From an uncultured Desulfurococcales archaeon (GTDB lineage Archaea > Thermoproteota > Thermoprotei_A > CAZTBM01 > SZUA-1508), in contig CAZTBM010000008.1 of the NCBI GenBank assembly GCA_964611985.1, positions 3,008 through 67,007 of the forward strand: a DNA stretch of 64,000 nucleotides. The letters are read 5' to 3'. The notes beneath the pieces were generated by a model. The model saw only the letters and a program-made list of their open reading frames with translations. It was not told where the DNA came from and did no database searches. The position numbers and the translations under genes were made by a program. This document shows, piece by piece, positions 14,835 through 45,219 of the stretch (within the stretch, counting starts at the first letter, position 1; the number at the start of each line of letters is the position of its first letter).

Positions 14835-15865
14835 AAGTCGTGGTGAAAAAAGCCAGTATAATAATAGTAGGTTTTGGAAGTGTTGGAAGAAACTTAGCCA
14901 AACTAATAGCATTTAGAAATAAAATAATTGAAGATAAATATGATACCCGTATTAACGTTAGCGCCATTTTAGACTCTCGAGGGGCAGTAATGAAGGAGGG
15001 AGGATTCACACCATACGAGCTGCTAAAACTATGTGAATTACCAAGGTCAAGTGTTAGCTCCTATAAACCTTATGGCTTTCCTAGCGCTAAACTCAAAGAT
15101 GTATATTCAAAGATAATACCAGATGTTCAGGTCGAAGTAACTCCATCAAACTATGAAAATGGCGAGCCGGGACTAAGTGATATACTATATGCATTAAAAA
15201 ATAAGGTAAACATTGTATCATCTAATAAGGCACCATTCGTCCTAGCATATAAACGCTTAATGGATATGGCGTCAAAGAATAACGTCCAAATAAGATTCAA
15301 AGCTACAGTAATGGCTGGAACACCATTAATTGACTTGCTTAATGGACTAAAAGGGTATGATATAGAATCTGTAGAGGGTATACTCAATGGTACAACAAAC
15401 TTCATTTTAACTGAGATGCACGAGAACCTACTATCATACAGTGAGGCTTTAAAGAAAGCACAAGCCCTTGGAATAGCAGAGGCAAATCCTGATCTAGATG
15501 TTAAAGGCTGGGACCCAGCGGCAAAGCTAGTCATAATATCAAATGTCATAGGACAACCTATCGAGTTAAGCAGGGTAGATAGGGATGACCTATCACGCTT
15601 AGACATTAAGGAGATCTATAAAGCAATCAAAGAAAACAAGGTAATAAAGTTCATCGCCGGCCTCAATATTAAAGAGAAGAAAGCCTCAGTAAAACTAACA
15701 AAAATACCTCGAGAAGATATCTTAGCTTCAGTAAATGGTACACTAAATGCTGTCAAGATAAGGACAGATGTAAACAACATAACTTTAATAGGAAAAGGCG
15801 CTGGGGGAGCTGAAACAGCACATGCTATACTGGATGATTTAATCAGCATTATAAAGGTGATATGA
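14831..15865 (+). CDS. hom: homoserine dehydrogenase
   Basis: IVGFGSVG, SSNKAP, ATVMAGTP, GILNGTTNFIL, AEANPDLDVKGWDPAAK, GKGAGGAETA. Confidence 0.95.
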   Translation: MKVVVKKASIIIVGFGSVGRNLAKLIAFRNKIIEDKYDTRINVSAILDSRGAVMKEGGFTPYELLKLCELPRSSVSSYKPYGFPSAKLKDVYSKIIPDVQVEVTPSNYENGEPGLSDILYALKNKVNIVSSNKAPFVLAYKRLMDMASKNNVQIRFKATVMAGTPLIDLLNGLKGYDIESVEGILNGTTNFILTEMHENLLSYSEALKKAQALGIAEANPDLDVKGWDPAAKLVIISNVIGQPIELSRVDRDDLSRLDIKEIYKAIKENKVIKFIAGLNIKEKKASVKLTKIPREDILASVNGTLNAVKIRTDVNNITLIGKGAGGAETAHAILDDLISIIKVI

Positions 15866-44401: not shown

Positions 44402-45121
44402 ATGTCTATTACAGAATTTATAAGAAGGACTAGTGAGAAGGAATTTGCAAAATATATTGACAATACTATGCTTAAACCTGATGCAACAGTTGATATAATC
44501 AAAAAATATGTTGATGAAAGCATAGAATATAACTTTCAATGTCTTGTTGTAAATCCATACTACGTGAGTGTTGTTAAAGAGCTTAGTAAAGGCATGTTGA
44601 GAATAGGCACTGTTATAGGATTCCCCTTGGGTGCTAGTAAAACTGAGGTTAAAATATTTGAAGCTAAAAAGGCTGTGGAGGACGGTGCAAGTGAAGTCGA
44701 TATGGTCTTGAATATAAGCGCATTTAAGAGTGGAAACTTAGACTATGTCTTAAACGATATAAAGGCTGTAGTTAAAGAAGTTAAAGAATATGGAGACATA
44801 GTAGTTAAGGTCATTATTGAAGCTGGCTTATTGAGTGATGAAGAAAAGATAAAAGCCGTTGATATAATCTCGAACGCTGGTGCAGACTACGTTAAGACGA
44901 GTACAGGGTTTATTGCTGGCGGAGCTACTATTCATGATGTTCAATTATTGTACCAAGCTGCAAGAGGTAGGGTAAAGGTGAAAGCCTCTGGAGGCATAAG
45001 ACACGCTGAAGATGCTATAGCATTAATACTGGCAGGAGCAGATAGGATAGGTACTAGTACAGGGTCTAAAATAATGAAGGAATATATTAGTTTAAGAAAG
45101 AAGCTTTATAAAGGAGATTAA
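44402..45121 (+). CDS. deoC: deoxyribose-phosphate aldolase
   Basis: IDNTMLKP, VIGFPLG, GASEVDMV, KVIIE, DYVKTSTG, KASGGIR, RIGTS. Confidence 0.96.
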   Translation: MSITEFIRRTSEKEFAKYIDNTMLKPDATVDIIKKYVDESIEYNFQCLVVNPYYVSVVKELSKGMLRIGTVIGFPLGASKTEVKIFEAKKAVEDGASEVDMVLNISAFKSGNLDYVLNDIKAVVKEVKEYGDIVVKVIIEAGLLSDEEKIKAVDIISNAGADYVKTSTGFIAGGATIHDVQLLYQAARGRVKVKASGGIRHAEDAIALILAGADRIGTSTGSKIMKEYISLRKKLYKGD

Positions 45122-45132
45122 TGAGTAGACAA

Positions 45133-45208
45133 TTTGATGATGACTGGTATTACCTTCGAAACCCTAGTATCCCCTAGGGGGATGTGAGACCCCTAGACAC
45201 TGATTCAA
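45133..45208 (+). ncRNA. box C/D methylation-guide sRNA with insertion between D' and C'
   Basis: C ATGATGA 45137-45143, guide CTGGTATTACC complementary to the 16S 530-loop GGUAAUACCAG, D' TCGA 45156-45159, C' GATGTGA 45181-45187, D CTGA 45200-45203. Confidence 0.85.
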
Positions 45209-45219
45209 TACTGATGCAA

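Follow-up and report, generated by a model that had tools for sequence, protein, structure and literature searches.

A conserved, probably dual-guide box C/D sRNA in a Desulfurococcales archaeon and the predicted k-turn role of its D′-C′ linker hairpin

Downstream of a deoC-like gene in an uncultured Desulfurococcales archaeon we find a conserved box C/D sRNA, encoded within a 64,000-nucleotide stretch of DNA that we refer to as the window. We consider it quite probable that this is a dual-guide RNA aimed at an A in 16S rRNA and a U in 23S rRNA, that the hairpin in its D′-C′ linker is stem I of a k-turn, and that complementarity between this linker and the RNA’s own D guide is mostly a by-product. 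This reading corrects the first-pass annotation of the locus on two points: the insert that it singled out is an ordinary one, and the 23S site that it proposed is probably not the primary target.

Architecture and conservation of the sRNA

The RNA has a C box (RUGAUGA) near its 5′ end and a D box (CUGA) near its 3′ end, and each of its two spacers is 12 nt, the canonical length for archaeal C/D sRNAs. The features of the locus are as follows.

44402..45121, + strand: deoC-like gene, encoding a DeoC/LacD family aldolase (Pfam PF01791, E 1.3e-13)
45105-45112, + strand: TATA-like box TTTATAAA within the 3′ end of deoC, starting 32 nt before the C box; putative promoter element
45133-45208, + strand: box C/D sRNA, with its boxes and two 12-nt spacers
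45133..45136, + strand: 5′ flank, forming a weak terminal stem of UUU with AA(U) at about 45207-45209
45137-45143, + strand: C box ATGATGA, fitting RUGAUGA
45144-45155, + strand: D′ guide (spacer) CTGGTATTACCT, 12 nt
45156-45159, + strand: D′ box TCGA, 12 nt past the C box
45160-45180, + strand: D′-C′ linker AACCCTAGTATCCCCTAGGGG, 21 nt
45181-45187, + strand: C′ box region GATGTGA, in the register suggested by alignment with 123 orthologs
45188-45199, + strand: D guide (spacer) GACCCCTAGACA, 12 nt, with A45195 at N+5
45200-45203, + strand: D box CTGA, 12 nt past GATGTGA and kept in all close relatives

The terminal stem comprises only about three A-U pairs and is offset from the boxes, and the RNA ends given above are predicted ones. 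A pattern combining the C box with the D′ guide (NTGGTATTACC) occurs exactly once each in 130 of the 351 genomes of the class, representing 49 of 106 genera, while the reversed pattern, used as a control, gave near-zero matches. Carriers include Thermogladius, Ignisphaera, Thermodiscus, Hyperthermus, Pyrodictiaceae, Acidilobaceae and Desulfurococcaceae. These single-copy orthologs, along with the boxes and spacers, bear out the original call of a box C/D sRNA. Rfam yielded no matches in the window at gathering thresholds, and the matches found with E up to 10 were at chance level, none of them on the sRNA strand. When metagenomes were scanned with the 15-mer TGGTATTACCTTCGA, which was too unspecific for the purpose, a C box accompanied 0/120 loci. 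A possible paralogue on contig C5 (C5:57319) has a C box and CTGGTATTA without a D′ box, and was judged to be a chance match.

The source assembly (G000) comprises 1.65 Mb in 56 contigs, is 90% complete and has 37% G+C; its sole congener among species representatives is ‘Desulfurococcales archaeon SZUA-1508’. ARAGORN called 36 tRNA genes in it, 29 of them with an intron, although a few of the calls (SeC, Pyl) look doubtful. The mean G+C content of the tRNA genes is 67%, which, together with the frequent introns, is indicative of a (hyper)thermophile within the Thermoproteota. The genes for fibrillarin (E 4e-106) and Nop5 (E 3e-81) lie next to each other on contig C1. The 56 contigs contain no 16S or 23S rRNA genes, and neither does the assembly of the congener G001, so the evidence for both guide targets comes from the rRNA of relatives.

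A strict scan of the source assembly returned eight C/D candidates and none in a reversed control; two or three of the candidates have a CC...GG linker. The scan also places a candidate C/D sRNA at positions 127-179 of the window (+ strand), which reads ATGATGA, 11 nt, TTGA, CCGATAGG, ATGAGTT, 12 nt, CTGA and has a 5-bp terminal stem. Separately, a sequence similar to part of the sRNA lies on the minus strand of contig C30 at about 14985-15012, where CCCCTAGGGGGAGAGTGAGACCCCAAG is identical at 24/27 positions to window 45171-45196, the segment spanning the 3′ arm of the linker, the C′ box and the start of the D guide. The word CCCCTAGGGG occurs at only these two loci in the assembly, against 0.2 expected. 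The C30 sequence sits between two ORFs of the same strand, and its GTG could serve as a start codon; read from the opposite strand, it has TGATGA ... CTGA on its flanks.

Genomic context and transcription

The nearest homologues of the 44402-45121 product are annotated as deoxyribose-phosphate aldolase. The stop codon of this gene ends 15 nt upstream of the C box, confirming, along with the PF01791 match, the earlier placement of the sRNA just downstream of deoC. The same synteny is seen in G001 and at five further ortholog loci (L338-L341 and L346), and no sRNA was found downstream of more distant DeoC relatives (59-63% identity).

Processing from a host mRNA, the route suggested as possible by the first-pass annotation, is documented for sRNAs (Tripp et al. 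2017, cited in PMC7994747; PMC6009581). Across the 130 orthologs, which lie in varied genomic contexts, both the frequency of TATA-like words and the A+T content are highest at -37 to -30. Given this peak, a promoter of the sRNA’s own may lie at 45105-45112, within the last part of deoC, as an alternative to processing of the deoC transcript. G001 keeps the TATA-like box as TTTATAAG, and the same stretch also encodes the conserved KLYK C-terminus of the protein.

The D′ guide and its predicted 16S target

The D′ guide pairs over 11 nt with the 16S sequence GGUAAUACCAG, and the exact target (GGTAATACCAG) is present in the 16S rRNA of all relatives examined (8/8). The N+5 nucleotide of the guide is T45151, which lies opposite the first A after GGU in 16S. 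Taking the E. coli sequence to be numbered G527-C528-G529-G530-U531-A532, we equate the targeted A with A532. The first-pass annotation had reached the same position from the N+5 rule, and the exact match in all eight relatives sustains it. We counted pairings of at least 9 bp to rRNA or tRNA, centred on N+5, as evidence of guiding; with the rRNA of relatives both the D′ guide (11 nt) and the D guide pair to this extent. Neither guide has a tRNA target of at least 9 bp among the 10 tRNAs parsed of the 36 called by ARAGORN. Acting with L7Ae, Nop5 and fibrillarin, the D′ guide would be predicted to direct 2′-O-methylation of the A in the 530 loop of 16S (A532/A509).

This target is known biology. 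A532 corresponds to A509 in pan-archaeal numbering, a site at which methylation has been predicted in 3/7 archaea (Dennis et al. 2015, PMC4644070); Pca sR53 and Tte sR15 are among the guides named for it. Like the window sRNA, the Pyrobaculum sR53 family and Thermoproteus tenax sR15 are C/D sRNAs predicted to act on this helix 18 site, their other guide being directed to a remote position in rRNA (PMC4644070; PMC6009581). They differ in that A509 is listed under their D guide, with 16S C34/35 and C530 as targets of the partner, whereas the window sRNA would address 16S through D′ and 23S through its partner. The hosts of sR53 and sR15 belong to a different class of Thermoproteota, and the likeness noted is one of predicted targets. 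Within the present family, the ortholog L255 (GCCCCGAU) matches the 16S C35 region, as paired by hand with printed 16S 5′ ends.

The linker hairpin as probable stem I of an internal k-turn

The linker of the window sRNA contains a hairpin in which CCCTAG (45162-67) pairs with CTAGGG (45174-79), giving 6 bp closed by a 6-nt loop. Between this stem and the boxes lie two A on one flank and a single G on the opposite flank. The first-pass annotation took the 21 nt between D′ and C′ to be an unusual insert. Among the 123 orthologs that we parsed, most have a linker hairpin and the usual linker is 7-14 nt, with C’s directly after the GA of D′ and G’s directly before GAUGA (for example CCCTTAATAGGGG, CCTTTAAAGGG, CCCTGCCCGGGG, GCCTGGTACGGGGC and CGCGTCATAGGCG); a minority have linkers of 0-3 nt, which are k-loops. 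Closing stems of at least 3 bp are found in 58% of 81 distinct linkers, compared with 20% of shuffles. Further support for the stem comes from covariation. In an ungapped alignment of 13 sequences, the score observed over stem I and the D′1-2/C′5-6 pairs was reached by 0/500 shuffles; the stem I pairs occur as CG/GC/AU, and the D′1-C′6 pair takes CG, UA, GC and AU forms. Of the first 65 orthologs to be parsed, 58 have a Watson-Crick pair at D′1-C′6; in the window sRNA the partners of D′ U45156 and C45157 are A45187 and G45186, respectively, in C′. A linker hairpin is therefore usual, and its arms and the adjoining k-turn pairs covary, which overturns the view of the insert as an oddity. The 21-nt linker is nonetheless among the longest of the family, 5 nt longer than that of G001.

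The order of elements in the family (GA, stem, the 3-nt bulge GAU, GA) is that of a standard k-turn with a stem I. Archaeal C′/D′ motifs are known to fold as an internal k-turn or as a k-loop (Hoefler et al. 2021, PMC8413462). With the linker hairpin as its stem I, the C′/D′ motif is predicted to adopt a complete internal k-turn instead of a k-loop, and on the comparative evidence we read the 21-nt linker as the usual family hairpin, somewhat lengthened. The C′/D′ motif of internal k-turn sRNAs is likewise flanked by a D′-C′ helix, stem I (Nolivos et al. 2005 as cited; Hoefler et al. [quoted passage not shown] The window sRNA differs from other internal k-turn sRNAs in the 6-bp length of its stem I, longer than in most orthologs, in the AA/G offset and in the GU core of its C′ box.

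We parse this C′ box as GAU-GU-GA, that is, a 3-nt GAU bulge, a GU core replacing GA, and then G45186/A45187. The core (45184-45185) departs from the consensus in having U at 2b, the place of the second sheared A; the D′ box, UCGA, supplies the GA opposite. Shifting the C′ register restores a GA core, but the shifted register fits the G001 stem poorly. The GAUGU variant is common to G001 (L002, about 1581-1582), L341 and the unrelated ortholog L091. All four lineages of the small clade to which the window strain belongs have the GU core, and their flanking pairs stay Watson-Crick and fit the covariation of the family. The GU core might weaken L7Ae binding and the D half of the RNA.

The D guide, its probable 23S target and a derived allele

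Close relatives of the window strain were located via the DeoC protein. A sister strain, represented by four independent assemblies with deoC 99% identical, has the D guide GACCCCCAGACA, and the body of its sRNA is identical to that of the window except for a C at the position of T45194. A sister species (locus L341, DeoC 77% identical) has the D guide GACCCCCAGACG. Besides the window, three further assemblies extending to the position of T45194 have this T, which rules out a sequencing error. C occupies the position in the four sister-strain assemblies and in both outgroups, L341 and G001. Metagenome data sets with the T allele include ERZ27248328, ERZ27247980 and SRR7051322, and the C allele is found in ERZ27227321, SRR6823442, ERZ584659 and JGI 3300014887, among others. 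From this distribution we conclude that T45194 is derived, a C-to-U transition in the RNA, and that the ancestral base is C.

The ancestral form of the guide identifies its probable target. The guide word GACCCCCAGAC(A/G), which both the sister strain and L341 possess, is perfectly complementary over 11-12 nt to 23S CGUCUGGGGGUC and not to the CUAGGGG site that the first-pass annotation had assigned to the D guide. In the 23S rRNA of two genomes, G009 and G021, CGUCUGGGGGUC is matched by the L341 guide at 12/12 positions and by the sister-strain guide at 11/11, all Watson-Crick. The window D guide pairs with 23S CGUCUGGGGGU(C/U) of relatives through 10 Watson-Crick pairs and one G·U; the U allele thus retains the target pairing by wobble. 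Because the ancestral guides are perfect on CGUCUGGGGGUC, the primary D target is probably the U in CGUC[U]GGGGGUC, opposite A45195, rather than CUAGGGG, which we rejected in this role. The D guide would then direct methylation of this U. The surroundings of the site (...ACCGACACAGGUGCCC...AAGGCGUCUGGGGGUCAACCC...GGAACUCGGCAAAUUGG...) presumably align near position 1650 of E. coli 23S. Two 16S candidates were also set aside: paired by hand, the window guide matches only 6-7 positions of the helix 18 5′ strand and does no better with the C35 region.

Other members of the family direct their D guide elsewhere. In Ignisphaera and relatives (L096-L098, L280-L286), the D guide (A/G)GAC(A/G)C(U/C)AGAC... 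pairs with 16S GUCUGGUGUC, the helix 18 5′ strand adjoining the D′ target, making these sRNAs classic double guides. The CUAGACA 3′ half of their D guide is shared with the window guide; the targets differ.

The derived allele may also have changed what the D guide can recognize. The sequence GTCTAGGGG(T/C) occurs in the 23S of several relatives. Against GUCUAGGGG(U/C), the 23S site first proposed, the window guide forms 9-10 contiguous Watson-Crick pairs in G009, G277, G007 and others, a match that the C allele does not have. CUAGGGG could therefore be an added target of the U allele, and the window strain might have been retargeted so that it methylates the new position, GUCUAGGGG(U), through CCCCUAG. 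We regard this as unlikely, as the ancestral site is still paired over 11 positions (10 Watson-Crick plus G·U), and a 12-mer will not rarely find 9-10-bp chance matches in G-rich rRNA totalling about 4.6 kb; moreover, the support comes from the 23S of relatives, as the source assembly lacks its own.

A different reading of the D half is that it is decaying: with a non-canonical C′ box and a drifting guide, the RNA would effectively be a single 16S guide whose 23S matches are fortuitous. The presence of the GU core throughout the clade is consistent with this, as are the wide variation of D guides across the family, in which the D′ guide is nearly invariant, the difference of the G001 guide in its 3′ half, and the common occurrence of orphan guides in archaeal sRNAs (PMC6009581). 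However, the 12/12 match of L341 is to the 23S of two other families, and with about 4.6 kb of rRNA to match, a 12-mer would do so by chance about 3e-4 times per genome. In addition, all four lineages share GACCCCCA, in which the N+5 base lies, the D′1-2/C′5-6 pairs are still Watson-Crick, and the same GU variant persists in the unrelated lineage L091. On balance we think decay of the D half a doubtful explanation and retain the dual-guide reading.

The labile D guide resembles the drift described for archaeal sRNAs, in which one guide is conserved while the other is labile, and slight changes are enough to move or weaken targets from one close relative to the next (Lui et al. 2018, PMC6009581). 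The window case differs in that the change occurs at strain level (99% identical deoC), is a C-to-U transition that preserves pairing by wobble, and also alters pairing within the RNA itself.

Complementarity between the linker and the D guide

The 3′ arm of the linker offers a second pairing, in which CTAGGGG (45174-80) joins the D-guide segment CCCCTAG (45190-96) over 7 bp. The first-pass annotation proposed that this anti-guide could act as a switch for one methylation. In its functional form, the idea is that the arm mimics the rRNA target in cis: it would compete with rRNA for the D guide and with the C′/D′ k-turn, C′ then lying in the hairpin loop, and so gate D-guided methylation or the assembly of the RNP, for instance when the temperature is below the optimum. 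The pairing is mutually exclusive with the local hairpin, and the naked RNA prefers it at all temperatures tested: ViennaRNA gives -13.0 vs -9.3 kcal/mol at 37 C, -5.75 vs -3.25 at 70 C, and -3.55 vs -1.42 kcal/mol at 80 C for the anti-guide and local forms, respectively. Among linker shuffles, 0.2-0.3% of trials have at least 7 bases complementary to the D guide.

The lineages of the clade were compared in one common register, with nearest-neighbour energies for naked RNA (kcal/mol at 75 C, anti-guide vs local).

Window strain: linker:D-guide CUAGGGG/CCCCUAG, 7 bp; -4.7 vs -2.4
Sister strain: 2 bp, an A·C mismatch and 4 bp, or GGGGG/CCCCC, 5 bp; -2.9 vs -2.4
L341: UCUGGGG/CCCCAGA, 7 bp, from a quite different 14-nt linker; -4.1 vs -0.8
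G001: at most 4 contiguous pairs, no stable helix; 0 vs 0

The 6-bp and 7-bp pairings claimed for the window are thus present, but the longer one needs the derived T45194; the sister strain has a weaker version of it, and the congener G001 lacks it. The first-pass annotation had itself pointed to conservation and covariation of insert and guide in relatives as a check on the switch; the two alternatives are not both conserved there, which largely tells against it.

Across the wider family the anti-guide is not a general feature. In 80 of 88 orthologs (85 distinct linker/guide combinations), the longest complementarity between linker and D guide is 2-4 nt, and a 7-nt case occurs only in the window and in G120, whose congener G121 lacks it. 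Linker-shuffle p-values are flat, with 3/85 below 0.05, so that no family-wide excess of anti-guide complementarity was found. With the D′ guide as a control, linker matches are equally long, for example CGGTAAT in two Thermodiscus-like genomes. Pairing of a G run with a C run is the minimum-energy fold in 23/88 orthologs at 70 C, as expected where a C-rich guide stands beside a stem with a G-rich 3′ arm.

Individual linkers outside the clade also resemble guide targets. Those of L245/L247 (the Thermodiscus-like genus) and L284/L285 (Ignisphaera) contain words, CGGTAAT (7 nt) and GTAATA (6 nt), that mimic the 16S target of the D′ guide, and in L077, from the uncultured Desulfurococcaceae genome G120, TCTATGG of the linker complements the D guide. 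Such guide-complementary linkers are too few for a firm excess.

Our preferred account is that the complementarity would arise from a G-rich arm standing beside a C-run guide, the C run of the guide being dictated by a G run in its target. In the window strain the recent C-to-U change at 45194 would have lengthened the pairing to 7 bp; the change would be tolerated, since U can still form a pair with the G of the target. We conclude, from comparison of the sequences, that the complementarity is mostly a by-product, with the last base pair probably a recent wobble-tolerated mutation, and that a regulatory switch is unsupported. Given the known affinity of L7Ae, its binding and an 11-bp guide-target duplex should readily outweigh a helix of -2.5 to -4.7 kcal/mol, its stability at 75-85 C, and any effect of so weak a helix would be expected mainly well below the growth optimum.

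Some features keep a functional anti-guide in consideration at a low probability. Pairing is seen in three of the four lineages, reaching 7 bp in L341 by different letters from those of the window strain, and linker position -5 and guide position 7 show G-C, A·C and A-U states, which looks a little like compensation; the sporadic guide-complementary linkers elsewhere, for the D guide in G120 and for the D′ guide in Thermodiscus-like and Ignisphaera genomes, lean the same way. Set against its absence in G001 and in G121, the origin of the extra pairs in a single tolerated transition, and the composition of arm and guide, these features leave a functional role improbable. A fuller version can be imagined, in which stem I doubles as the 23S-target mimic: before L7Ae binds, or in the cold, its 3′ arm would hold the D guide and hide the C′ box, coupling methylation to RNP assembly or temperature, with the alleles at 45194 setting the strength of the lock and similar linkers having arisen independently. 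We consider this version improbable as well. If it were true, D-guided methylation would be tied to correct RNP assembly or to growth temperature.

There is a purely formal likeness to RNA thermometers and riboswitch hairpins, in which two mutually exclusive helices share one strand. The window sRNA differs from these in that its alternatives are not both conserved, it has no sensing element, and the competitor would be L7Ae binding.

Significance of the sRNA family

The locus adds a well-supported sRNA family without an Rfam entry, found in Desulfurococcaceae, Pyrodictiaceae, Acidilobaceae, Ignisphaera and related lineages, that guides a predicted methylation adjoining G530 of the decoding centre. 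The family usually closes its C′/D′ motif with a real helix, and the GU-core C′ box of the window sRNA and its relatives would be a natural k-turn variant of interest for L7Ae binding. The D half offers a view of guide evolution at strain level, where one wobble-tolerated transition alters a guide-target pair, possibly adds another target and makes a competing pairing within the RNA stronger. The natural C and U alleles at 45194 would provide a handle on whether self-complementarity of a guide affects methylation.
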